Source: Escherichia coli
GTDB lineage: Bacteria; Pseudomonadota; Gammaproteobacteria; Enterobacterales; Enterobacteriaceae
DNA length: 64,000 nt
Assembly (NCBI RefSeq): GCF_045037415.1
Contig: NZ_CP173440.1
Reading direction: 5' to 3' (one strand)
Each line of letters starts with the position of its first letter. Position 1 is the first letter of the stretch. Below, piece after piece: positions 6,168 through 58,333 of the stretch. Both the position numbers and the translations under genes were made by a program. A model generated the notes under the pieces. The model was given only the letters and a program-made list of their open reading frames with translations. It made no database searches and was not told the origin of the DNA.

Positions 6168-6332
6168 GTTTTTGCTTCTATGTCAGGTTGAGCTATACCC
6201 TAACTGGATTGTCATTTTCAGAAGACGACTGCACCAGTTGATTGGGCGTAATGGCTGTTGTGCAGCCAGCTCCTGACAGTTCAATATCAGAAGTGATCTG
6301 CACCAATCTCGACTATGCTCAATACTCGTGTG

Positions 6333-43662: not shown

Positions 43663-45180
43663 CTTTCGACTACCTCCCCTCAAAGCCATATCACGTACGT
43701 TAATCCTGACTTCATTAAAATCAGTGGTTTCACTGAGGAAGAACTATTAGGCCAGCCTCACAACATCGTAAGACACCCAGATATGCCGCCTGCTGCATTT
43801 GAGCATATGTGGAGTACATTAAAATCTGGCCGCTCATGGATGGGGCTAGTAAAAAATCGCTGTAAAAATGGCGACCACTATTGGGTAAGTGCTTATGTAA
43901 CGCCAATAGCTAAGAATGGTTCGATTGTTGAATACCAGTCTGTAAGGACCAAGCCTGAACCTGAGCAGGTTTTGGCTGCGGAAAAATTATATGCTCAATT
44001 GAGAAGCGGGAAGGCCGCGAGGCCGAAATTGGCTGCTAGCTTTTCCGTGAAAATACTCTTGCTCATATGGGGTAGTATTATATCAAGCGCAATGGCTGCC
44101 GGCATGCTTACTGATACATCAATAAGCAGCTTATTGTTAGCCACTTTAATGTCAGGAAGCTTAAGCTCTGTTAGTGTTTTGGCTATTCTCTCTCCTCTTG
44201 GAAGACTGGTTGAAAGAGCCAGGAATATTTCCAATAACCCATTAAGTCAATCCCTCTACACTGGGCGCACCGATGAGTTTGGCCAAATAGAGTTTGCTTT
44301 ACGAATGATGCAAGCTGAAACAGGCGCCATAGTAGGTCGCATAGGTGATGCATCAAATCGGCTTAGCGAACACACCCGAGGCCTACTAAAGGATATTGAG
44401 TCAAGCAATGTACTTACAGTTGAGCAGCAGGCAGAGACAGATCAAATAGCAACGGCAGTAAACCAAATGGTGGCAAGCATTCAAGAGGTTGCGAGCAATG
44501 CACAGCATGCTGCAGATGCGGCCGGAAGAGCAGACACTGAGACGGCATCTGGCCAGCGTCTGGTAGCCCACACAAGCCAGTCAATCACTGCCCTTGAAGG
44601 TGAAATTAGGCAAGCCACTCAGGTTATTCATGAGCTTGAAGGTCAAAGTAACGAGATATCAAAAGTTCTTGACGTTATACGAGGGATCGCCGAGCAAACG
44701 AATTTGTTGGCACTCAACGCAGCAATTGAGGCCGCGCGTGCTGGTGAGCAGGGGCGTGGTTTTGCTGTTGTCGCCGATGAGGTTCGCAGTCTTGCTGCTC
44801 GCACACAGCAATCGACAACGGATATTCAAAGCATGATCAGCGCTCTACAAGAGCGAGCGCAATCCGCTGTTACAGTCATGGAGCAAAGTAGTCGGCAAGC
44901 GCACACGAGTGTAGCTCACGCAGAGGAAGCAGCTACAGCTCTTGATGGAATTGGCCAACGCGTTAACGAAATTACCGACATGAACGCGCAAATAGCGACT
45001 GCGGTCGAGCAGCAGGGAGCAGTAAGTGAAGACATAAACCGCAGTATTATCAATATACGCGATGCTGCTGATACCAATGTACAGACCGGGCAGAATAATT
45101 TGCAAAGTGCGAAATCTGTCGCTCAGTTAACTAGCGCTCTGAGCGAACTGGCAAAACAGTTTTGGGAAAAACGAGGATAA
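43663..45180 (+). pseudogene. Methyl-accepting chemotaxis protein with PAS domain (Aer-like), 5'-truncated by IS26
   Basis: After the IS26 end the frame reads a PAS-like segment ([41 protein letters not shown]), two TM helices, then an MCP signalling domain ([35 protein letters not shown]). Confidence 0.75.
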
Positions 45181-45450
45181 CGCTTTTCAGTATCTCGACA
45201 GGGATAACTTACTTTACCATCGGTTATCCCTTTTAGCCGCACAAATTTTAGCCATGGCTTTTCAGGAAGTCAGGGCTATCAGAATGGCCTTAGAAAGCCT
45301 AGTCAAAGAGCTGTCACGAGAACACCGTTAGCTTAGCGTACGATTTTTTCCGAATTCTGCGGTTCCCCCTTTCATGGCTTTTCAGCTGAGTAATTCTCTC
45401 AATAAGCCATCTGAAATTACTGTATGACATTCTATCCTCTACAAGACATT

Positions 45451-46446
45451 TTAATCATTTGTGTTTGGTAATAAATTTAAAAGTTCGCCAGGTAATGTCT
45501 CGTCTTCTAGTAGCATAAAGTTCCCATCCAGAAACTCTAAGTTAATATATTCTCTGTATAGTTGAATATACTGATTAATGGTGTAACATAAGTTATTACA
45601 GATGATGCTACAGTTTTCTCCCCATAAGTCGTGCTCTTTCTGAAGGTTTTCATGCATTTCATAGGGTTCATTTTTTTTCCAGCTTTTTAAAACCATATAT
45701 CCTCTTCGCCCCATTTCCATATATCTAAACTCCATGAAATGTTTTTCAAGAGCAAGAATCCATGGGTACATTGCTTCAATTGCTTCTTTAAAACCCGGAA
45801 TATCATACGTTTGTTGATTACAAATGCCGACAATTTTCCTCAAATCCCTTAAAGTATCAGCTTCAATATAATTGGCAGACAAATTAGTGACAAAGAGGCC
45901 TGGCTGATCTAAAGGTAAATGCCTGACTAGGTAGTTATGTATAACCATTTCTTTCTTATATGAGGGCGTCTCGACATTCAAAAATGTTTTTAACTTTGAT
46001 GCTGGTAATTTCATTGCTAAACGGTGAAGGCTCGAAGAGCTGAAAACATCTGCGTGTTCTAACTTATAATCTTCTTTAATTTTCGCAAGAGTGGTATATA
46101 TCTCTTTTGGAAACCCCTGTTCTTTATCATTGATAACCGCATAAAAAACTTTAAACTCGCAAGACTCATTCCATGATTCTTTTATTTTTTCAACATCTGC
46201 TTTCATTTTTTTTATTGCAAATTTTATTGTTTCGCGATTTAATTCCTCCGGAGCGTATACTTGATAATATTCCCCTCGCTCTGGAATATAACCATCGTTA
46301 CCGCCATCACCTTTTCTTCCCCAAGGTTTGACCTTCCTGAATTTTTCAGGGTAAGATAACTCCATTACGGTTTCAAATAGTCTTTGATATTCTACACCGT
46401 TGCTACGGAGTATTTCTAAACGCATACGTGCCCAAAAATCTGACAT
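45451..46446 (-). CDS. Hypothetical protein with an N-terminal Mrr-type nuclease-like motif (WGRKGDGGNDGYI); AT-rich gene
   Basis: 331-aa ORF; G-D-G-G-x-D-G motif resembles the Mrr catalytic domain, but the usual (E/Q)-x-K lysine is not evident (YQVY). Confidence 0.5.
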   Translation of the reverse strand: MSDFWARMRLEILRSNGVEYQRLFETVMELSYPEKFRKVKPWGRKGDGGNDGYIPERGEYYQVYAPEELNRETIKFAIKKMKADVEKIKESWNESCEFKVFYAVINDKEQGFPKEIYTTLAKIKEDYKLEHADVFSSSSLHRLAMKLPASKLKTFLNVETPSYKKEMVIHNYLVRHLPLDQPGLFVTNLSANYIEADTLRDLRKIVGICNQQTYDIPGFKEAIEAMYPWILALEKHFMEFRYMEMGRRGYMVLKSWKKNEPYEMHENLQKEHDLWGENCSIICNNLCYTINQYIQLYREYINLEFLDGNFMLLEDETLPGELLNLLPNTND

Positions 46447-46707
46447 ATAAAAATTTCCTCGAAAATAGCAGATCTCTAATGTTTATCTATTCCTTATCAT
46501 CTTTTATTGGGAAAAACAACCTCAACGCATTAACTACCGAAAGTAAGCTTAAACGGGTGTGAAGGCCGTAACCATTTCCATCCAGATATAGCGAGACCAT
46601 TGTTCACATCCCACAACTGAACGAGGCCCAATTTAGCAATCCACCACGCAGAGAAAGTAAAGGAATCTTATGGCATAGATGCACGTAAGTGGTAAGGTAC
46701 TGGGCAT

Positions 46708-47625
46708 CTACAAAACCTTATTTCTAAGCCATCGAGCCAGTCCGGTGTCCAGTATGAGTTCGGCAAGCCTGATGGGGCCAATCATAGTGACTCCTTCAGC
46801 ACGAAGGTCCTCACTCAATGTCCCTCGATGCCAGACAAAGAACATTCGAGCATAGCTGTCACTGGTCTGGAACAGTGACAGATACTCAGAGAATACAGAC
46901 GGGTCAGCAACAGACTTCACTTGCACAAATGCCCGTTCGCCGGTAGTGGGCAGTTCAAGCTCAATGTCTACGGTCTTCTGTGTCCTCCCAAGGCACCCGG
47001 TTCTTCTCCATCCGCTGGCGGAAAAAATCAGATCTACCAGCAATTCAAAGTCCTGCCAGGTAAGTAAACTACACAGCCTCGTAATAGCCTTAAGGTACTG
47101 AGCTTCAGCAATATCCGCGTCTTTGATTTCCGGCGATTGCTCGTCGTTAATTTTCCGCAGGGCGTAATCGGCCAAACGCACATCGCAGATGGTACCCCGG
47201 TAACTCTGTGTAGCGAGCAAAGCACCGCTAAGGACGCTGTGGGAGAGAAGGTTTCCGGCCAGACTATGGTTGTGCCATCCGTTCACAGTGGGGCGGATCC
47301 TGCTGCCATCATCCAGTTCTGTGACTTCCCCGGAAGGCTGACACCAATACAATAATCCCTGGCTGAAAGTTATGAACAGCATATCGGGGGTGGCTGTGTA
47401 AAATGTCCTTATCTGCCTGACATCACTGGTGGCAGTGGACTGGTTATATTTCCTCTCTTCTAACCAGACTTTATTGACTTCTTCCCACTTTCCCTCAAGA
47501 CACATCTGATGGGGTGTTTTGTCGTAACCAAACCTAATAATGCCAGATGTCAGGCACTCACGTTCCCATTCGCCTCCCTCTCCCAGCTTGATGTATTTAA
47601 CTGCAGTAGCCCGAATCTTTTCCAA
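46708..47625 (-). CDS. Hypothetical protein with a C-terminal PD-(D/E)xK restriction-endonuclease-like domain
   Basis: 305-aa ORF; C-terminal FELLVDLIFSASGW...VDIELELPTTGERAFVQVK fits a D...E...QxK nuclease core; N-terminal ~190 aa unassigned. Confidence 0.5.
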   Translation of the reverse strand: MEKIRATAVKYIKLGEGGEWERECLTSGIIRFGYDKTPHQMCLEGKWEEVNKVWLEERKYNQSTATSDVRQIRTFYTATPDMLFITFSQGLLYWCQPSGEVTELDDGSRIRPTVNGWHNHSLAGNLLSHSVLSGALLATQSYRGTICDVRLADYALRKINDEQSPEIKDADIAEAQYLKAITRLCSLLTWQDFELLVDLIFSASGWRRTGCLGRTQKTVDIELELPTTGERAFVQVKSVADPSVFSEYLSLFQTSDSYARMFFVWHRGTLSEDLRAEGVTMIGPIRLAELILDTGLARWLRNKVL

Positions 47626-47713
47626 AATACAATCACTCCGTTAAACGAATATCCAGACAGAATAGGAGGTTCTGTCCAGCGCCCACAAAAAAGCCACTTT
47701 CGCGGGGTGTGTC

Positions 47714-48046
47714 TTATTTTTTCGCGACCAGATGAACACCTTCCGCTTTATCGGCGGCCAGCTGAATAAGCCCATCATACTCTTCAATCACATGATCATG
47801 ACCATGTACGGACCACTCACAGCTCTGACATTTAATCCCAAACCGCACCTCTCCGGAGTCGCAGCTCACTACTATAACCTTTGACAGACACCCACTGGGT
47901 TTCACGTTGTACTGAAGCTCGGCGTTCATATCAAACCAAACTTTATCGATACGAGTCTGTAGCTTCGCCTGAAAATCCGGGCGTGTTTCCGCCATCCTGA
48001 CGGCTTCAACAGATAATACCTTATATTTGCCCTGCTGAAGTGGCAC
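47714..48046 (-). CDS. Small hypothetical Cys/His-rich protein
   Basis: 110-aa ORF with CxxxxxxxC and CQSCEWSVHGHDH motifs suggesting metal binding. Confidence 0.4.
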   Translation of the reverse strand: MPLQQGKYKVLSVEAVRMAETRPDFQAKLQTRIDKVWFDMNAELQYNVKPSGCLSKVIVVSCDSGEVRFGIKCQSCEWSVHGHDHVIEEYDGLIQLAADKAEGVHLVAKK

Positions 48047-49109
48047 GCCAGGCCAGCGGCGTATGGCGGTGTCTGTCCAGAGACGGGAGTTCTTAAGTTG
48101 GTAGACGGTGATCCATTTTTCTGACCATTCATAAAATTTCTGGCATAGCAGCTTCTACAGCAAACTTTCGGTCACCAATTAAATCCCCTGGATTTTACCC
48201 ATACCTGCTCTTCCCTGGAATGTCGTTAATATCCACGGTATCAGGTCAGAGCTGTAACGACCAGCAGCGCCAGTGGAAATAGTCCGGCCAGTACCGGCTC
48301 CTTACCCCGGATTGATGTCTACTGTATGCGATAAATTTGGGAAAAACTGGCGATGGCCATTCTTCTGATTCTGATCGCCGGCAAGCGTGTCAGGTAGCAA
48401 AAGAGCGAACGTAAGACAACATACCCTTGAGGGTCCTGACCTTCAACGTGCCCGACCCGGCCCCCGCCGCGCGGACGAAAAAAAGAGAAAAAATAAAAAA
48501 AAAGAAAAAAAGAATATGCCGAAAATGTGCACAGTCGCGACCCACGCAGAGCGTGGCGCTCCGGGGCAAAGGCTTTGCAGGACTATAAGGCATGTTGTCT
48601 TACGTTTTGAGTGTGATGGTTACGAGCCCACCAGCTTTCATGAATTGTCCCGCCGGGTGGACTGCTATAAAGTGCATACCAGCACTGCAGCCCCTGCCGG
48701 TGATGAAGAATAATTCCGTTCAGGCGAGTATTGAGCAAGACCTTTACTACGTATTAAAACCTGGTACTCCGGGATGACGATGCCTGAGGTGCTTACCACC
48801 GGGAGAAGCAATTCGTTTATGGCGCCAGCAGCTGGTACCTGGCAGAGTTAAGTTCTTATCGCAAAGGATGATAAAAATGAGCCATGGCAAATGTGAGCCG
48901 ACAAACACGAATGCCGCCGATTACAAGCTGTACGCGCGATTCGATGCTGGTGAAACGCTTGAAAGCGTTTTAGCCTCTCCTCCGACCACGAAGCACAATA
49001 AAGTAACTTCTGAAGGAAACATCAGGACTGAACACAGAATGTGGATAGCGTGGAGAAAGAAGCATCCCAGACCACTCTGATTATCAGTGACGATTAATAA
49101 GGATAAAAC

Positions 49110-49424
49110 ATGCGAACGACAAGTATCACCCTGTGTCTGGTTTTGGCGAGTTTTGGTGTATCCGCTAAAATCCTTGCAGACCCAGACCTTACTTACCAGG
49201 CAAATAAAACGTGTGCTAAACGAGATGAACTGGAACTGAAAGTCCCTTTAGAAGCCAATAATCCCTACTCTCCCACATGGGGTTTGGACAAGGGCATGGT
49301 GCAGGCCACAATTGACGCACTGAAAGAAAATCCAGACATCGCCCCGACTGACTCTGTAGCCTGCCAACAGGCTGCAATAAAACAGTATCGGGCTGGGCAA
49401 AAACACTACAGTAAGCTCAGGTAG
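49110..49424 (+). CDS. Small hypothetical secreted protein (predicted signal peptide)
   Basis: 104-aa ORF with N-terminal MRTTSITLCLVLASFGVSA followed by a polar mature region. Confidence 0.4.
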   Translation: MRTTSITLCLVLASFGVSAKILADPDLTYQANKTCAKRDELELKVPLEANNPYSPTWGLDKGMVQATIDALKENPDIAPTDSVACQQAAIKQYRAGQKHYSKLR

Positions 49425-49628
49425 CTGCCGTGATGCCCACCAGCTGAAACCTGTGTGTGGTATAAAAACCCCGTAGCGCTGGTGCAAAACAGACCAGCGC
49501 ATTCCAGTTCTCAATCCCCTTCTGTGATGTAGGCCCCTGTCGCATTCAGACCTGAATAACCGTGCAGGGAAACATGTCAGTAAGCCATCTGGATACAAAA
49601 ACTGGTGGTATAGCCACTTTAGCTTAAA

Positions 49629-49649
49629 GCTAATGTATGCGTACATTAG
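49629..49649. repeat. 21-bp palindrome gCTAATGTAtgcgTACATTAGt followed by a T-run; partner of 50172-50192
   Basis: Read directly; the site at 50172-50192 is its exact inverse (centre cgca versus tgcg). Confidence 0.75.
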
Positions 49650-49666
49650 TTTTAAGTTTATGTTAT

Positions 49667-50149
49667 TTACCCTTCTCCCTTCCTGGATGCCTTAACCTGG
49701 GTCTGATAGTTGCGCTTTACCCGCTCAATTTCCGCCAGAGTTGCCGCCCAGTGCAGCCCTGCGGCGTGACGATATCTGGTTGCCATTTTTTCAACGGCCT
49801 CCGGAGTGCTGTCATCGCTGCGGTGCTGCCGTCCCTTCACCCCGAAAATTTCCACTATAAGCCACTGGCTACCGGTTCTGCCGAACAAGGCCTGACACAG
49901 CCGCCTCACGGCAAGCGGGGTCAGATCCGGGTCGGGATCATACGCGATGGTGGCAAAAATAAAACGCAGCATCTCAGAGGTTTTGTAGCGTTTTACCGCT
50001 GCCGCCAGCCGGGCAGCTCTTTGCGGCGCTTCCCAGCGGTCGTCGCTGTAACCTGCCACTTCAGAGAGATAGTCCTTCTCGAGTTGTTTAGCCGTGTAGC
50101 AACGTCCCCCCAAAAACATCCGCATAGCTTCTTTCGTTTCAGCTCTCAC
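49667..50149 (-). CDS. Hypothetical protein bracketed by the two palindromes
   Basis: 160-aa ORF MRAETKEAMRMFLGGRCYTAKQLEKDYLSEVAGYSDDRWEAPQRAARLAAAVKRYK...; no family recognised. Confidence 0.45.
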   Translation of the reverse strand: MRAETKEAMRMFLGGRCYTAKQLEKDYLSEVAGYSDDRWEAPQRAARLAAAVKRYKTSEMLRFIFATIAYDPDPDLTPLAVRRLCQALFGRTGSQWLIVEIFGVKGRQHRSDDSTPEAVEKMATRYRHAAGLHWAATLAEIERVKRNYQTQVKASRKGEG

Positions 50150-50171
50150 GAATCTTGTCCTCAGCCAAAGC

Positions 50172-50192
50172 TAATGTACGCATACATTAGCA
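50172..50192. repeat. 21-bp palindrome gCTAATGTAcgcaTACATTAGc, 23 bp upstream of the 49667-50149 start codon
   Basis: Read directly. Confidence 0.75.
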
Positions 50193-51095
50193 TTAAGTAT
50201 CCGGTTCAACAAAAATCAGGAAACCGATCTGATTTAGTGCATGTGGCTGTCTCTTTTGGATTATCGCTTTTGCGTTATGGTATACAGGTTACCCCTCCCC
50301 CTCTTTTCCCGCTGGTCTACTGTAGTCGACACAAAAGACAGGAACTGCGGTATGTCCTGATAATATTGTTTGAGTTTTAATCACGAAGCAGAGGGTATCG
50401 CATACAGTAGACACAACGCAGCCAGAATAACGCTCGATGTAAAATTTAGATCGTTGTCGCCTGCAGTAGACATTCCTGGTATCGACTCTGGTGCATCCAA
50501 TACTGACCCGTTCCCGGATCATGGCAGAGCATCCAGTAGACACGGTATGGAAGGACGTCAGTCCTCACCTTTCCGTCTGTTTTGACTGTGTCGGAGACGA
50601 CGGTTGCGGTTATTGTTGATGCCTTTGGCCGTCAGGTGAATACCTGTCAGTCAGGTAACTCTGTCGTTACATTTGATGCCCGAAAATCATAATTACCACA
50701 TATTAATCCGGGCATTCCGGAAAATTGTACCTGCCTGAAGAGTATCAAACGATACCTGTCTCCCCTCCTCTGAATTATCTGCTCAGTCGAGAACCTTGAC
50801 GATCGGGTGATTCAGTTTCGGCAAATGGCAGCATGATAATGTCAGCCAACAGCGTGCTGGTGAATTTATTGTCGGGCCAGACGAATTCTGTTTGTCACTG
50901 CATACTGCATGCCGGGCAGAGGAGTGAACAACGATCGAACTGAAACAGTTGCAGCGTCGTATGGAGAAAGAATGGGTTGGTTTCAGGCGGTGCTTCGGTC
51001 GGTTTCAAACAGTGTCTGACCGACTTCTGGTAAGTTTCTCCCTTGCTGTCTGGTGATTCTGTCTTGCCCGGATTGTTGACTATTGATGATGGTGT

Positions 51096-51104
51096 TTATC
51101 CACA
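51096..51104. promoter_or_regulatory. DnaA box (TTATCCACA) followed by an AT-rich tract, upstream of the repA iterons
   Basis: Consensus 9-mer read directly; AT-rich 51110-51180. Confidence 0.55.
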
Positions 51105-51214
51105 GCTTAGAATAATAACAGAAGCTTAACTAAAGCTAAGAAAAGGACAAAAAAGACTAATAAAAGAATAACGTTTTAGTGAGGCCTTGAACTACGGGGC
51201 TCTCAGGCCATCTC

Positions 51215-51346
51215 TGTCAACGCTGGCGGGTATTCTATCATTGCTGGCGGGTGAACCATCATCGCCAGAGGGTATACCATCAACGCTAACGGGGCAATTA
51301 TCATCGCCAGAGGGTAGATTTTATCAACGCCAGCGGGTAATCTGGT
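51215..51346. repeat. Origin iterons (about six ~22-bp repeats with core CAACGCTGGCGGGTA) immediately upstream of repA
   Basis: tcaacgctggcgggtattcta / tcattgctggcgggtgaacca / tcatcgccagagggtataccat / ... / tcaacgccagcgggtaatctgg. Confidence 0.65.
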
Positions 51347-51375
51347 AAAAATATCCACATCCGGGATTTTATAAA

Positions 51376-52260
51376 ATGGCCAATGATAACAATCAGTTAG
51401 CGCTAATTATCACTGAGCAAGATAAAAGTTCTGGTGAAGTTATACATTTGGTTCCTAACTCAAAACAGAGTATTCAACCTAAATCGCTACTGCGATTGGG
51501 GGTCTTTGTTCCGACAGTCAAGGATGGCAGCGACCCTATGGCACGAGGTCATGTCATCGATGCAACGACTGAGTTGTGTCGTCTTTCTTCTATCGCTGGA
51601 GAGGGGTACGAAAAGATTAGTATTTTTGGGCCCAGGCTTGATATGGATACGGATTTCAAAGTCTGGCTAGGGATCGTGGACACACTCGCCAACACGTTTC
51701 TTGAGCCTGATGGGACTGTTAGGGTCAATTTTATTGATTTTGCTTTCAGTTGTGGGCTTGCTACAAAACGAGTTGATTCAAGGTTAAGGAAACGTTTTAG
51801 CGACTCACTGACACGGATCCAGCACACCCATTTCCAGTTCATCAAAAACTCAACAGTAGAAGGGAAAAAAGTAAAGATCGACATGAGCCTGGTGTCTACT
51901 TCTTACTATGATGAGGGAACCGATGAGGTCATTATCAGGCCAAATCCGGATTTGAATACTCTGTATCGTGTCGACGGGAAGACCCGACTTTACTTAAAAA
52001 TATTGAAGACCCTGTCTCGAAAAGAATCAGCCCAGGCACTGTATCTTTATCTAGTTGAATTACCTGACCATTTTTATCGCATTGGATTCGACCGCTTAAG
52101 AGAACGGTTGCAGCTGACTTCACACAAAGGTGCTCAGAATGCGACGATAAAAAAAGCGTTAGAGCAACTGGATGAAGCTGGTTTTTTAAAATACACGATA
52201 GAAAAAAATCGTGGGGATTATGTACTGGTCATTCTTAGTCGAAACAAAAAAGTTACCTGA
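51376..52260 (+). CDS. repA: Iteron-binding replication initiator RepA (P1 RepA / RepFIB family)
   Basis: 294-aa product with LLRLGVFVPT, GPRLDMDTDFKVWLG, RKESAQALYLY and KKALEQLDEAGFL blocks shared with P1/RepFIB RepA. Confidence 0.8.
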   Translation: MANDNNQLALIITEQDKSSGEVIHLVPNSKQSIQPKSLLRLGVFVPTVKDGSDPMARGHVIDATTELCRLSSIAGEGYEKISIFGPRLDMDTDFKVWLGIVDTLANTFLEPDGTVRVNFIDFAFSCGLATKRVDSRLRKRFSDSLTRIQHTHFQFIKNSTVEGKKVKIDMSLVSTSYYDEGTDEVIIRPNPDLNTLYRVDGKTRLYLKILKTLSRKESAQALYLYLVELPDHFYRIGFDRLRERLQLTSHKGAQNATIKKALEQLDEAGFLKYTIEKNRGDYVLVILSRNKKVT

Positions 52261-52399
52261 GTTATTTAGGTAAAATCAGTCATTTACATTACACACTGAC
52301 TCCAGAGTGTAGTTTCAAGAGTTCGGGTTTTTAGCTAACGCAGCAAACCGCACCAGGTAATTACCCTCCAGGGATGAGGCTTTACACCAGCAGCACCCT

Positions 52400-53520
52400 G
52401 TTTACCCGCCAGCGTTGAGGATGACCACCAGCAGCGACCACGCTTACCCGTCAGCGTTGAGGATGGTCACTGGTATCGCCCCTGTTTACCCGCCAGCGTT
52501 GACGGTGACCACCGACAGCGGCCACGCTTACCCGCCAGCGTTGAGGATGACTACCGGCAGCGGTCCCGTTTACCCGCCAGCGTTGAGGATGACTACCGGC
52601 AGCGGTCCCGTTTACCCGCCAGCGTTGAGGATAGCCACCGTCAGCGGCCACGTTTACCCGCCAGCGTTGAGGATAGCCACCGTCAGCGGCCCCGTTTGCC
52701 CGCCAGCGTTGAGGATGAGCACCGGCAGCGGCCACGTTTACCCGCCAGCGTTGAGGATAGCCACCGTCAGCGGCCACGCTTACCCGCCAGCGTTGAGGAT
52801 AGCTACCGTCAGCGGCCACGCTTACCCGCCAGCGTTGAGGATAGCCACCGTCAGCGGCCACGTTTACCCGCCAGCGTTGAGGATAGCCACCTTCAGCGGC
52901 CACGTTTACCCGCCAGCGTTGAGGATGAGCACCGTCAGCAGCCCCGCTTACCCGCCAGCGTTGAGGATAGCCACCGTCAGCGGCCCCGTTTGCCCGCCAG
53001 CGTTGAGGATGAGCACCTGCAGCGGCCCCGCTTACCCGCCAGCGTTGAGGATGAGCACCGTCAGCAGCCCCGCTTACCCGCCAACGTTGAGGATAAGCAC
53101 CGTCAGCGCCCCCGTTTGCCCGCCAGCGTTGAGGATGAGCACCGGTAGCGGATCCGTTCACCCGCCAGCGTTGAGGATAAGCACCGTCAGCGGTCACGTT
53201 TACCCGCCAGCGTTGAGGATAAGCACCGTCAGCGGTCACGTTTACCCGCCAGCGTTGAGGATGAGCGCCGTCAGTGGATCCGTTTACCCGCCAGCGTTGA
53301 GGATAAGCACCGTCAGCGGTCACGTTTAACCGCCAGCGTTGAGGATGAGCGCCGTCAGTGGATCCGTTTACCCGCCAGCGTTGAGGATAAGCACCGTCAG
53401 CGGTCACGTTTAACCGCCAGCGTTGAGGATGAGCACCGGCAGCGGCCCTGTTTGCCCGCCAGCGTTGAGGATGAGCACCGGTAGCGGATCCGTTTACCCG
53501 CCAGCGTTGAGAATGATTCC
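52400..53520. repeat. Tandem array of ~26 imperfect 42-bp repeats (TTACCCGCCAGCGTTGAGGAT + variable 21 bp); core is the inverse of the origin iteron
   Basis: Periodicity and unit read directly; CCCGCCAGCGTTGA is the reverse complement of the upstream iteron core TCAACGCTGGCGGG. Confidence 0.85.
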
Positions 53521-53702
53521 CCTCCACCGACCCCGGTTACACGCCAGCTTTGACACTACCAGCGACTACAGTCGACATTAAAATCGCCGTGACCTGCTGC
53601 AGCGCGATATACGCCCGGCTGGCATCAAAAGAATTTTAACCAAACAGCACACATCCAGCGGTACAGGAGGCCAGGTTTAACCCGGGGCAGAAACAGATTG
53701 AT

Positions 53703-54770
53703 CTATAGCGACTTGTTAGGATCATTTAGCAAAAACCAATCCCGAAAGGCCTGCTTGCTATCGAAGGTGGGAAGGTTATGTATGGACAAGTTCCAGTTAA
53801 TGATTTTCACTATAAAAGACAAAAATTCAATTTCAGCCTCATTCAGTACACCCTCTCCTTTTTTCCGTATATAGAAGTCATACCATCGTTCGTAGGCGGC
53901 AACATTGATAGATTCAGATGCTTCCAGAAGCCGGGGGATATAATAAACCAGTTCTTCAAAGGCAATACTGCCTTGAGGGATATCAGAACGGCTCAGGCGA
54001 CAAAGAAGGTTAATCGTGGCTCGAAGGTGATGCCACTGCTGTGCCGGGGAGGATGGGAGGGCGTTCATGCTTATCGGAAGTTCATGAGGAATTAAAGCAA
54101 GGATCTGATTTCCACTGGTAGACAGCTCACGCCGGTACTGGTGTAGAGTATGGTGTTTAACCTTCTTCATCATAGGATGGTAGATCCATTTTTTCGCTTC
54201 CTCAGAAACGAAAAGTAACTTTTCTATCGCATCCATCATCTTTATGCCTTCTCCACTCTCACGATATGGAGCGATGATACTTTCAATCCGAACGGCATCG
54301 ATCTCCACCAGCGCCAGCTGGTCTGTTTGCGCTAACAGGTCTGGATTGGGCTGGATATCCTCCGACGTATCATTAATAAATATCCCGATTGTCGTATCGT
54401 TACATATCCCTGTGAGGTCAGCATTAAGGCCACAAACAATCCCACCACCAGCGAGATTTTTGAGGTTAACTATCCCTTTCTCCTTACCCTGCAGAAGATG
54501 AGGGAGAGCAAGGTATTTTTTTTCCTGTATTTTCACCTTTATGTATTTTTTTATATGTTGTAGTGTGAGCTCACTACAAACCCCTTTTACTTCTGTGCTG
54601 TGGCTAAAATGCCATTTTTTATTTTGACCCTGTTTGGCAATCAGGGAGGTCCCACAGATGAGGCAGATACAGTTACACGAAAGCCCATTTTCAACGCTGG
54701 CGATATCAACAATTTTATTTGAATCCGTATCAAATCCAAACGGGATCCATTTTTGTGCATTACGTCGCAT
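53703..54770 (-). CDS. Hypothetical protein with CoiA-like N-terminal zinc-finger/nuclease-related motif
   Basis: 355-aa ORF; N-terminus LSCNCICLICGTSLIAKQGQNKKWHFSHS resembles the CoiA family CxxC...HFxH signature. Confidence 0.45.
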   Translation of the reverse strand: MRRNAQKWIPFGFDTDSNKIVDIASVENGLSCNCICLICGTSLIAKQGQNKKWHFSHSTEVKGVCSELTLQHIKKYIKVKIQEKKYLALPHLLQGKEKGIVNLKNLAGGGIVCGLNADLTGICNDTTIGIFINDTSEDIQPNPDLLAQTDQLALVEIDAVRIESIIAPYRESGEGIKMMDAIEKLLFVSEEAKKWIYHPMMKKVKHHTLHQYRRELSTSGNQILALIPHELPISMNALPSSPAQQWHHLRATINLLCRLSRSDIPQGSIAFEELVYYIPRLLEASESINVAAYERWYDFYIRKKGEGVLNEAEIEFLSFIVKIINWNLSIHNLPTFDSKQAFRDWFLLNDPNKSL

Positions 54771-54855
54771 GTATATTCCTCGTTAAAAATGAGTAAAGGA
54801 ATTCTACATCATCCGTTTTTATCAAACCTGGAATAACAGCGTCTAATTACATTAT

Positions 54856-55110
54856 TCATATCTCATCGGGGATGAGATGCCACATGGAAGCAGGTATTTT
54901 GTCATAGTTTTTTTTCATGTAGATCTCAGCCCTGCGGTGATCATAAGCTCCGTTCAGGCTGGTTATCTTATTCATATCCCCACCTTCATCATTTAATTTA
55001 TCCAGGATACGCTCAAACACTCGGTCAAGGGTTTCAGTCGTACTGCACTTTCTGAACTTCAGGAGATAGGTTTCTCTCAGGCTACTGTGCGCATTTGGGC
55101 TTTTCAACAA
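54856..55110 (-). CDS. Small hypothetical protein
   Basis: 84-aa ORF, no recognisable family. Confidence 0.35.
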   Translation of the reverse strand: MLKSPNAHSSLRETYLLKFRKCSTTETLDRVFERILDKLNDEGGDMNKITSLNGAYDHRRAEIYMKKNYDKIPASMWHLIPDEI

Positions 55111-55259
55111 CGACGCTCCGGGGCATGTTCAAAAACACTGGCTATTTTCGAAAACAGTAAACGAAGTTCCACGCACAGGCAAGAGAAGCCATTTGATTAA
55201 TTCACGTTCTGCCTGGATTTGAAAAAAAACAATGTTACTATACTGGCTATAAAAACAGT

Positions 55260-57190
55260 GTGCGCCGGGGAACCGGTTAGAGATCAAGGGGTGAAAGTCC
55301 CCGACCATTGAAGGACCAGCAATCCACAAGGTCCCCGAGTCATGCGTTGCATACCGCGAGGTATGGGGCGAAGCGTTGACAGGGGTGTTGACAGGCCAGC
55401 CATTGAGCCACGAAATGTATATTAAATTACCGGGTGCCGACGTTGTACTGTTAACGGAAGGCAACATCATAGGGTGCGATACTGCGAGTGCCACATGGAC
55501 CCGGCGGGGTCTGAGACCCTGGCATGTCAATACGATCTCTACGCGGGAACCGGGAGATCTCCCCTCTGACCATCTGCCAGTGTCGGAGATGGCCCGCACC
55601 GGGAAGACGAGGAGTCATAGCCGGTGATGTACGGAGAGGAGAAGTCGGACTCGCTCATAGTAGCGGCGAAGCAGGCGAACAACCCGAAAGGAGCGGAGTC
55701 AGTGGAGCGAAGGAGCGGGGCCAAGGGGAACGCGGAACAGCCACACATGCGCCGGACACAGAGCCGGGAAAGCATGTCACAGAGGCTGTCACGCGTGCGG
55801 GAAGCTGCGAAGCAGCGGAAGAAAGAACGGTTTACAGCATTGTTCCACCTGCTGACAGTCGAAGCACTGGAAGCCGCATTCCTCTCCCTGAGCAGGAAAG
55901 CGGCCGCCGGAGTGGATGGCATCAGGTGGATGGACTACGCCGGAAACATGAAGAACAACATAACAGATCTGCACCGGAGGCTACATCAGGGCAGCTACAG
56001 GGCGCAGCCCGGCAGGCGTCACTACATCCCAAAAGCGGATGGAAAACAACGCCCGCTCGGCATCGCCTCGCTGGAGGACAAGATCGTCCAGTATGCGCTG
56101 GTGAAAATCCTGAACGCAGTCTATGAAAACGACTTTATGGGGTTCTCATACGGGTTCAGACCCGGGCGAAGCCAGCACGATGCACTGGACGCACTGGCCA
56201 CAGGGCTGGTACGCACTAACGTAAACTGGGTACTGGATGCCGACATCAGTCAGTTCTTCGACAGGGTGAGCCACGAATGGCTGATCAGGTTCACAGAGCA
56301 TCGGATCGGCGACCGGAGGGTAATCAGGCTCATACGTAAGTGGCTCACAGCCGGGACGTCGGAGGAGGGTCAATGGCGAGCAACGGAGGAAGGCACCCCA
56401 CAGGGTGCGGTCATCTCACCGCTGCTGGCAAACATATACCTCCACTACGTCTTCGATCTGTGGGCGCATCAGTGGCGACGTCGCTATGCCACAGGCAATG
56501 TGGTAATGGTCAGATACGCCGATGACATCGTCATCGGGTTCGACAAACGATACGATGCCCGGCGCTTCCGTATAGCCATGCAGCGCAAACTGAGGGAGTT
56601 CGGACTCACGGTTCACCCGGAGAAAACCCGTCTGATGGAGTTCGGCCGCTTCGCTGCCGAAAACCGTGCCATCAGGGGAAAAGGCAAACCAGAAACGTTC
56701 AACTTCCTCGGGTTCACGCACATCAGCGGGAAAGATCGCAACGGCAGGTTCATGCTGATACGAAAGACCCGCCGGGATCGGATGACGGCAACTCTGAAAG
56801 CCATCAAAGACGGTCTGCGAAGGCGCTGGCATTACTCAATCCCCGAACAGGGAAAATGGCTCAGGAGAGTGGTTCAGGGATACCTGAACTATCACTCGGT
56901 ACCGGGCAACTTCCCCACCATGCAGAAGTTCAGGACACACGTAACAAACCTCTGGCGCCGGGCGCTCAGGCGCAGGAGCCAGAAGGATGATACGACCTGG
57001 ACGAAAGCAAACAAACTGGCAGCCGCATGGCTACCAAGGGTTCGGGTTCTTCATCCATGGCCTGTGGAGCGGTTCACCGCCAGACACCCGAGGCAGGAGC
57101 CCGGTGCGTAAATCGCGCACGCCGGGATCTGTGCGGGGGGTATCCGGTAACGGGTATCCCTACCGCGACATCAGTGAAAAGACATGAGAT
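55260..57190 (+). mobile_element. Group II intron (starts GTGCGCC) encoding an RT/maturase; 3' end approximate (within ~30 bp)
   Basis: 5' GTGCGCC at 55260; intron-encoded protein with RT domains 0-7 and X; ~80 nt follow the RT stop, as expected for domains V-VI. Confidence 0.7.
55624..57111 (+). CDS. Group II intron-encoded reverse transcriptase/maturase, no endonuclease domain; N-terminal start uncertain
   Basis: AAGVDG, PLGIASLEDKIVQ, SYGFRPGRSQHDAL, DADISQFFDRVSHEWL, PQGAVISPLLANIYL and YADDIVI motifs. Confidence 0.9.
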   Translation: MMYGEEKSDSLIVAAKQANNPKGAESVERRSGAKGNAEQPHMRRTQSRESMSQRLSRVREAAKQRKKERFTALFHLLTVEALEAAFLSLSRKAAAGVDGIRWMDYAGNMKNNITDLHRRLHQGSYRAQPGRRHYIPKADGKQRPLGIASLEDKIVQYALVKILNAVYENDFMGFSYGFRPGRSQHDALDALATGLVRTNVNWVLDADISQFFDRVSHEWLIRFTEHRIGDRRVIRLIRKWLTAGTSEEGQWRATEEGTPQGAVISPLLANIYLHYVFDLWAHQWRRRYATGNVVMVRYADDIVIGFDKRYDARRFRIAMQRKLREFGLTVHPEKTRLMEFGRFAAENRAIRGKGKPETFNFLGFTHISGKDRNGRFMLIRKTRRDRMTATLKAIKDGLRRRWHYSIPEQGKWLRRVVQGYLNYHSVPGNFPTMQKFRTHVTNLWRRALRRRSQKDDTTWTKANKLAAAWLPRVRVLHPWPVERFTARHPRQEPGA

Positions 57191-57196
57191 CTTCCC

Positions 57197-58333
57197 ATGA
57201 CAGATAAAACCAAACTGGTTGCTATCTCACGAACCGATGACATAAGTGCTCTGGATGCACTCAAGCTGTTGCGGTTTCGCCGGTACAATACGGCCAGAAG
57301 TCAGTTAAGGGTCACGAGTGTCTGGTCTGCATGGTGCGCCAGGCACGGTCTGACCCCCTTCCCGGTCACAGCGGTTGATGTCGAGCGCTATATTAATGGG
57401 CTGAATGGATCCGTTAAAATGGCGACTATCTCTCATTTTATTGCATGCCTTTCAAGCGTTAACAGCAGCCTGGGTTTTCCAGACTTCCGCAACGTTCTGA
57501 TAAAAGCACTGGTTCAGGTATGGCGGGCGCGGGAGAATGAGAAAAAAATCGTCACCGGTCAGGCCCTTCCATTTCTTATATCCGATCTCAATATTCTTCG
57601 CCGGTCGCTGCATAAAAGCGACGACCTGAGAGACATACGGGACCTTGCAATGATATGGGTTGGGTTTGAAACCCTGCTGCGTAACGTGGAAATTCGAAGG
57701 ATTAAAACCGGCGACCTGAAATGGCAAAATGACACGTCCTGTTACCTTCTGGATGTCATGCGGACCAAGACAAGCCTTTCAAGTAACCTGACATTTCAGC
57801 TCTCACCACAATGCAGTCAGCATGTCAGACGGTTGATTGAGACGGTGGAATACACCGATACCGAAACCTTCGGGCACCGTTTTCTTTTTCAGCCTGTAAA
57901 CATCCATACGAACCGATATTTCCCGTCCACCAGCAGTAAGCTATCCCGGGGTAAATCCATAGACAGGATGCTGGTCAAAGCAGGATTCAGTGAGGGGTTA
58001 CTGACGCAGTTACAGAATGAATCAAAGGTATCACGGGAAGATGTTGGAATGCTGTCCTCTAATTCACTGAACCAGGCATTTGCACGCCTCTGGGGGATTG
58101 CCGGGAAGGTCAGCGACAGTAACCGACAGTCCGGGCGGTACCGGACATGGACAGGACACAGTGTGCGTGTGGGGGGAGCCATAGAGCTGTTTAAGGCCGG
58201 GTACTCACTGGAAAAGATTACCGAGATGGGGAACTGGTCTGATCCAAAGATGGTCTTCCGTTATATCCGTGGATATCTTGCCAGTGAAAAAGCCATGGTA
58301 AGCTTTATGCGTAATCATCTGGACGACATATAG
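57197..58333 (+). CDS. Cre-like tyrosine site-specific recombinase
   Basis: 378-aa product; C-terminus GHSVRVGGAIELFKAGYSLEKITEMGNWSDPKMVFRYIR parallels the Cre catalytic H-x-x-R...W...Y region. Confidence 0.6.
   Translation: MTDKTKLVAISRTDDISALDALKLLRFRRYNTARSQLRVTSVWSAWCARHGLTPFPVTAVDVERYINGLNGSVKMATISHFIACLSSVNSSLGFPDFRNVLIKALVQVWRARENEKKIVTGQALPFLISDLNILRRSLHKSDDLRDIRDLAMIWVGFETLLRNVEIRRIKTGDLKWQNDTSCYLLDVMRTKTSLSSNLTFQLSPQCSQHVRRLIETVEYTDTETFGHRFLFQPVNIHTNRYFPSTSSKLSRGKSIDRMLVKAGFSEGLLTQLQNESKVSREDVGMLSSNSLNQAFARLWGIAGKVSDSNRQSGRYRTWTGHSVRVGGAIELFKAGYSLEKITEMGNWSDPKMVFRYIRGYLASEKAMVSFMRNHLDDI

Follow-up and report, generated by a model that had tools for sequence, protein, structure and literature searches.

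In replicons of the P1, F and RepFIB type, the textbook position of the origin iterons is between the DnaA box and rep. The P1 replicon has origin iterons (incC) and a control array further downstream (incA), nine iterons in total. RepFIB of plasmids F and P307 has a Rep_3-family RepA with repeat elements on both sides. When cloned, the iterons of P1, F, R6K and RK2 act as incompatibility determinants. IncF-type plasmids are known for mosaic replicons and for the exchange of replicon cassettes.

The window, i.e., the whole 64-kb stretch of DNA that was analyzed, belongs to a large Klebsiella IncFIB/IncHI1B plasmid. MOB-suite types these plasmids as IncFIB. Upstream of the replicon is a short repeat, and its copies are probably orphan iterons of a sister RepFIB-like replicon, left behind at a replicon-exchange junction. 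The core of the repeat, CAGTAGACA, is found as an exact match on the (+) strand at positions 50405–50413, 50464–50472 and 50534–50542. These positions are in a stretch (50150–51375) with no annotated gene in the 25 matching plasmid records listed. The three copies had been reported by a sequence-only reading, in which the first two positions and the spacing of 59 bp are correct; the third copy starts at 50534 and not at 50535, and the second start-to-start spacing is 70 bp and not 71 bp. Overlooked by that reading were an exact inverted CAGTAGACA at positions 48316–48324 (- strand) and an inverted copy that matches at eight of nine positions, CAGTAGACC (50314–50322), found by a search with one mismatch. 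The repeats are real and non-random, as that reading had it: there are four exact copies in 64 kb vs. 0.26 expected, and none of 100 shuffles reached four. A similar density elsewhere, which that reading had named as grounds for refutation, is not seen in the window; all exact copies are confined to positions 48316–50542. The true repeat unit is approximately 19–23 nt and not 9 nt, with the consensus GTCGCATACAGTAGACA. The three direct copies have a 16-nt register in common (TCGCATACAGTAGACA, TCGCCTGCAGTAGACA and GAGCATCCAGTAGACA), and positions 48311–48328 represent an exact inverted match of 18 nt to the first of them (copy 1).

The same motif is abundant in related Klebsiella plasmids, for example pKP118 (L002) and pBio19 (L003), whose replicon is here termed the sister replicon. 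With at most one mismatch there are 37 matches in pKP118 and 39 in pBio19 vs. approximately 2.6 expected. The pKP118 origin has five copies with a spacing of 21 bp, situated between a DnaA box (TTTTCCACA) with a GATC-rich stretch and the rep ATG. On the strand of rep, these copies are where origin iterons canonically lie. Past the point where homology to the window ends, both plasmids have a 1.2-kb array of about 24 copies, in which two subtypes alternate in a double unit of about 118 bp. The array is followed by a DUF6710 gene, six more copies, a RepB-family rep (WP_004026560.1) and then the five copies upstream of rep. Beyond the origin copies, the sister replicon has about 30 further copies downstream. 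The sister RepB is above the Pfam cut-off for both Rep3_N (WH1) and Rep3_C (WH2), and some records annotate its gene as 'RepFIB replication protein A'. Judged by sequence, the window repeats are iterons of a Rep_3-family initiator, a known kind of element in an informative position.

In plasmid pE17KP0019-1 (L004), an array of about 35 copies is found beside a RepB-family rep, and there is no annotated DUF6710 gene; therefore the repeats follow rep and not DUF6710. The size of the array is variable between plasmids, i.e., it is fluid. A search of 100,044 species-representative genomes with TCGCATACAGTAGAC gave only isolated matches, 45 in all, from unrelated taxa; arrays were absent, and none of the matches was in Klebsiella. 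The sister replicon is absent from that collection.

A 23-nt weight matrix for the sister iteron was made from 32 pKP118 iterons, taken solely from the part of pKP118 without homology to the window. The training iterons score between 20.6 and 33.1 bits, and 20 shuffles reached at most 17.7 bits. The matrix finds exactly five sites in the 64-kb window, and the next best match has 10.1 bits. The outlying iteron, TTTATCGCATACAGTAGACATCA (positions 48313–48335, - strand), has the top score of the window, 29.8 bits. It is 2.06 kb to the left of the other four and is also present in pKP118 (L002 6356). Copy 0, TGTGTCGACTACAGTAGACCAGC (50311–50333, - strand), is inverted and partly degenerate, with 17.1 bits; it is invariant in 11 of 11 aligned plasmids and contributes to two inverted-repeat pairs in a repeat search of the window. 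The three direct copies are copy 1, GGTATCGCATACAGTAGACACAA (50394–50416, + strand, 28.6 bits, within the training range), copy 2, GTTGTCGCCTGCAGTAGACATTC (50453–50475, + strand, 24.6 bits), and copy 3, GGCAGAGCATCCAGTAGACACGG (50523–50545, + strand, 16.4 bits), which has a degenerate left half. The outlying iteron and copies 1 and 2 are inside the training range and represent full-quality iterons. Copies 0 and 3 are half-degenerate with the cores kept. Their scores are lower than those of bona fide iterons and near the shuffle maximum, and their putative status as iterons rests on the cores and on clustering.

All five copies represent a repeated sequence of 17–23 bp with a common consensus. 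A phased cluster with a period of about 21–22 bp at the DnaA box and rep is found in pKP118, whereas the window copies do not form one; their spacings are 59 and 70 bp, and the resident DnaA box is at a distance of about 550 bp. Abutting copy 1 is CAGAGGGTAT (positions 50389–50398), a 10-mer that two resident origin iterons (51266 and 51308) have as their core. It was rejected as a resident-type iteron, as the resident matrix gives it at most 0 bits and as it is also present in pKP118 and pBio19, which are without the resident Rep; the identity is probably due to chance.

A BLAST comparison of window positions 44000–58000 with pKP118 shows 94.3% identity over 2640 nt at positions 47942–50540. 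This left module is in common with plasmids that carry the sister replicon, and it holds all five orphan iterons. Positions 50541–53710 show nothing in common with pKP118 other than 75 nt inside rep, in the inverted orientation, and homology resumes from position 53711 with 87.6% identity. The homology to both pKP118 and pBio19 ends at about 50540, which is the 3' edge of copy 3 and the left edge of the resident cassette. In a distant search, the homology of related plasmids breaks at a few fixed points, and the end of copy 3 is one of them. Copy 3 is degenerate in pKP118 (CCAATAGAAATAG) and has a perfect core in the window, where 15 nt (GCATCCAGTAGACAC) equal the pKP118 array units. Such a difference could stem from an earlier deletion between iterons, either before the exchange or in the course of it. 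An identical junction is present in 712 PLSDB records, including an ST23 hypervirulence plasmid with the resident rep annotated as truncated, which indicates that the exchange was a single ancestral event.

The left module also has an ORF of 104 aa (positions 49110–49424) and a 160-aa gene (49667–50149, - strand) with no Pfam match. The latter is bracketed by two copies of a palindrome of about 30 bp (AAAGCTAATGTA-N4-TACATTAG...), at 49626–49657 and 50167–50198, with the central 4 bp inverted between the copies (TGCG and CGCA). The DNA of the 160-aa gene, together with a part of the right palindrome, is found with approximately 79% identity in many E. coli and Salmonella plasmids. To the right of the cassette, at the start of a tyrosine-recombinase gene, the window has about 1.9 kb (55260–57169) that is extra relative to pKP118 (L002 14222/14223 corresponds to window 55259/57170). 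This suggests two tandem recombinase paralogues in the window vs. one, possibly hybrid, in pKP118.

The resident replicon cassette (positions 50541–53710) is non-homologous to the sister replicon, and its orientation is the opposite one. A lineage-specific spacer (50543–51095) is followed by the DnaA box TTATCCACA (51096–51104), an AT-rich stretch, six origin iterons of the type TCAACGCTGGCGGGTA (51217–51343), repA (51376–52260), and a downstream array of about 27 iterons with a period of 42 bp (about 52357–53527). The resident RepA (WP_004186900.1) is above the Pfam cut-off for Rep3_N (WH1), and its match to Rep3_C (WH2) is weak (16.9 bits vs. a cut-off of 21.1). The unit of the downstream array is TCAACGCTGGCGGGTAAAC; its period equals 14 codons and yields repeat-driven ORFs of 304 and 358 aa. 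RefSeq has a 'hypothetical protein' CDS on part of this array (WP_158003453.1 in pKp_Goe_026-1), and similar CDSs are found in L006–L011. These are almost certainly mis-annotated non-coding iterons. In the ST23 hypervirulence plasmid pDHQP1701672_hv (L009 3491–4075), the resident-type rep is annotated as a shortened CDS of 585 nt, and in another record (L008) it is split into two CDSs. Some lineages that have kept the orphan iterons may therefore have an inactive resident replicon. A possible sixth copy, ACCAGCGACTACAGTCGACATTA (53558–53580), is found after the resident array and before the homology to pKP118 resumes; it has CGACTACAGT in common with copy 0. Its score of 8.2 bits is at chance level and short-word BLAST gives E = 0.18; a sister-type iteron that has decayed, at the right cassette edge, would be one explanation, and a chance match the other.

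A tblastn search of the window with the sister RepB found the resident repA as the sole rep homologue, and the window copies are without a cognate initiator gene in cis. Resident ori and rep are present in 946 PLSDB records and sister ori and rep in 260, and the union, obtained with a concatenated query, is 1203 records. Both replicons are present in only about 3 of the 1203. In this respect the replicons resemble alternative cassettes for a single locus of the backbone. There is no cognate rep in the window and the two replicons are almost never found together; the five sites are therefore termed orphan.

What was observed is the motif identity, the junction, that a cognate rep is missing and that the two replicons exclude each other almost completely; these observations are joined here in a proposed sequence of events. 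In sister plasmids, the outlying copy, copies 0, 1 and 2, and the degenerate copy 3 would make up the periphery of a very large field of iterons, with about 24 copies in the array, six behind rep and five at the origin. By analogy with known systems, the origin iterons of this field of about 37 presumably serve in initiation, and the extra clusters presumably control copy number by titration or handcuffing. In the window lineage, everything to the right of copy 3 would have been replaced by an oppositely oriented Rep_3 replicon with unrelated iterons, and five orphan sites would have been left behind. The direction of the exchange, i.e., which replicon came first, is one that we infer. The sites are most likely inert relics in cis, without a cognate initiator on the plasmid, because no plasmid-encoded protein is expected to bind them. 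Were a sister-type plasmid to enter the cell, the sites could bind its RepB, in trans only, and the bound sites could contribute a little to incompatibility through titration or handcuffing. Rep binding and the effects in trans are predicted from the architecture of P1, F and RepFIB-type replicons. Literature searches on iterons in connection with pNDM-MAR, pLVPK, IncHI1B or RepFIB gave no description of these sites, and the 9-mer was found only in primer lists.

An alternative, which is unlikely, is that the orphan iterons are selected as a decoy or incompatibility determinant, which would bind incoming sister RepB, lower the replication of the rival and exclude it. All five sites are kept, with the cores mostly intact, in every window-type plasmid sampled, and cloned iterons are generally known to exert incompatibility, as noted above for P1, F, R6K and RK2. 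However, on a low-copy plasmid five sites would be a small addition to the approximately 37 that the sister plasmid already has. A comparison of eight window-type plasmids shows weakly lower variability inside the sites, where 4 of 92 columns vary vs. 90 of 805 in the sequence around them (p = 0.047). Indels and the ends of the alignments inflate the latter count, and the conservation signal is not robust. Among relatives, the sites themselves have point changes, such as a C-to-T change in the copy 1 core and a G-to-A change in copy 2. The window-type plasmids diverge by no more than 5% in the iteron stretch, and neutral persistence suffices at this level of divergence. The scarcity of records with both replicons agrees with a decoy, but is equally expected for alleles of one backbone locus, and exclusivity per record is uninformative on separate plasmids that reside together in one cell.

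More broadly, there is a small chance that the orphan iterons are not passive, and are either retained decoys or part of iteron fields that serve as preferred breakpoints for cassette exchange. In the decoy version, binding of the sister initiator would set incompatibility among the large Klebsiella IncFIB/IncHI1B resistance and virulence plasmids. In the breakpoint version, Rep-bound or handcuffed DNA would let whole replicon cassettes swap at one set position of the backbone. A general rule that breakpoints fall at iterons was rejected: the homology of pE17KP0019-1 stops approximately 12–24 bp past copy 0 and not at the edge of copy 0, and the pattern is anecdotal. In the same plasmid the omptin protease gene kop (L004 7392–8327) is present in place of copies 1–3, between copy 0 and the array. 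This position of kop is another rearrangement within the iteron field.

It is very unlikely that the repeats are auxiliary sites of the resident RepA, which would regulate the adjacent origin by cross-recognition. The resident RepA is homologous to the sister RepB (40% identity), with the C-terminal stretch that has the WH2 match among the better conserved parts, and the sites are about 550–800 bp upstream of the resident origin. However, the resident iteron consensus TCAACGCTGGCGGGTA has no detectable similarity to GTCGCATACAGTAGACA, and the resident-iteron matrix gives nothing above 0 bits near the repeats. Distant resident-type replicons are similar to the window only from the DnaA box onward, and the sites with the same flanks occur in plasmids without the resident Rep. 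The suggestion of the sequence-only reading that the repeats are regulator binding sites is borne out in kind, in that they have the sequence of Rep_3-family iterons; as sites of the adjacent replicon, which has its own iterons, they do not hold up. The predicted binder is probably a pKP118-type RepB and not the neighbouring RepA.

The same reading had also suggested an unannotated small RNA locus, and a location of the repeats inside a gene for a small RNA or a small protein is highly improbable, for although the stretch is without annotation, is spanned by mechanical ORFs of 84 aa (positions 50289–50543, - strand) and 71 aa (50370–50585, + strand) and has a weak promoter-like match at 50335–50364, the best Rfam match is a chance one on the opposite strand (E = 0.68), a terminator is absent, the promoter-like matches reach only 9/12, the 71-aa ORF has the three copies in different reading frames, related plasmids have 5-bp and 10-bp indels in the stretch, the frame of one or both ORFs is broken by indels of 10, 5 and 4 bp in close relatives, and an iteron fully accounts for the motif.

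Two further candidates were rejected. Multi-repeat transposon ends of the Tn402/Tn5053 TniA or Tn7 TnsB type were the first lead, from a resemblance to TGTCGTTTTCAGAAGACGG. The extended motif TGTCGCCTGCAGTAGACA has a likeness to the Tn402 inverted repeat, but the pKP118 origin and arrays explain the motif instead; the flanking duplication is unmatched (ATTGA vs. CGGTA), and the orientations are inconsistent with two ends. A likeness to a serine-resolvase half-site (TGTCYNNTA) is not accompanied by paired half-sites in the sequence. Elsewhere in the window, positions 6205–6229 (TGTCATTTTCAGAAGACGACTGCAC) represent an exact terminal inverted repeat of the Tn402/class 1 integron type. It points to a remnant of an integron or of Tn402 in the resistance region, and its likeness to the iteron motif is coincidental.

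The reading of the repeats as orphan iterons of the sister replicon accounts for a repeat cluster without annotation in about 700 sequenced plasmids of Klebsiella, among them pNDM-MAR-like resistance plasmids and a hypervirulence plasmid of ST23. It places the left breakpoint of the replicon exchange within a few bases, and two replicons that are both typed as IncFIB become alternative cassettes at one backbone locus. The junction is usable as a marker of plasmid ancestry, and a residual incompatibility between the two plasmid types is predicted. The kind of element is already known; it is the orphan state of these iterons that pinpoints the exchange in a clinically important plasmid group.

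Compared with P1, both the sister and the resident replicon have a DnaA box, a GATC-rich or AT-rich stretch and five to six iterons of about 19 bp (spacing about 21 bp) before rep, and a second iteron cluster downstream of rep. The likeness is one of layout, and the Rep proteins here are assigned to Pfam Rep_3. The arrays differ from P1 in size, with about 27 to 35 copies vs. nine iterons. The sister iteron field also encloses genes, and the window copies are detached from any cognate rep or origin. RepFIB of F and P307, as generally known, is similar in its iteron-regulated Rep_3 initiator and in the repeats on both sides of rep, but differs in iteron sequence, and the window copies are orphans beside a non-cognate replicon. 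The locus is similar to the mosaic IncF plasmids in that identity drops sharply from 94% to none at a module boundary and that alternative, mutually exclusive replicons are found at one backbone position. It differs from them in the breakpoint, which coincides with an iteron's 3' edge, and in the orientation of the incoming cassette, which is inverted.
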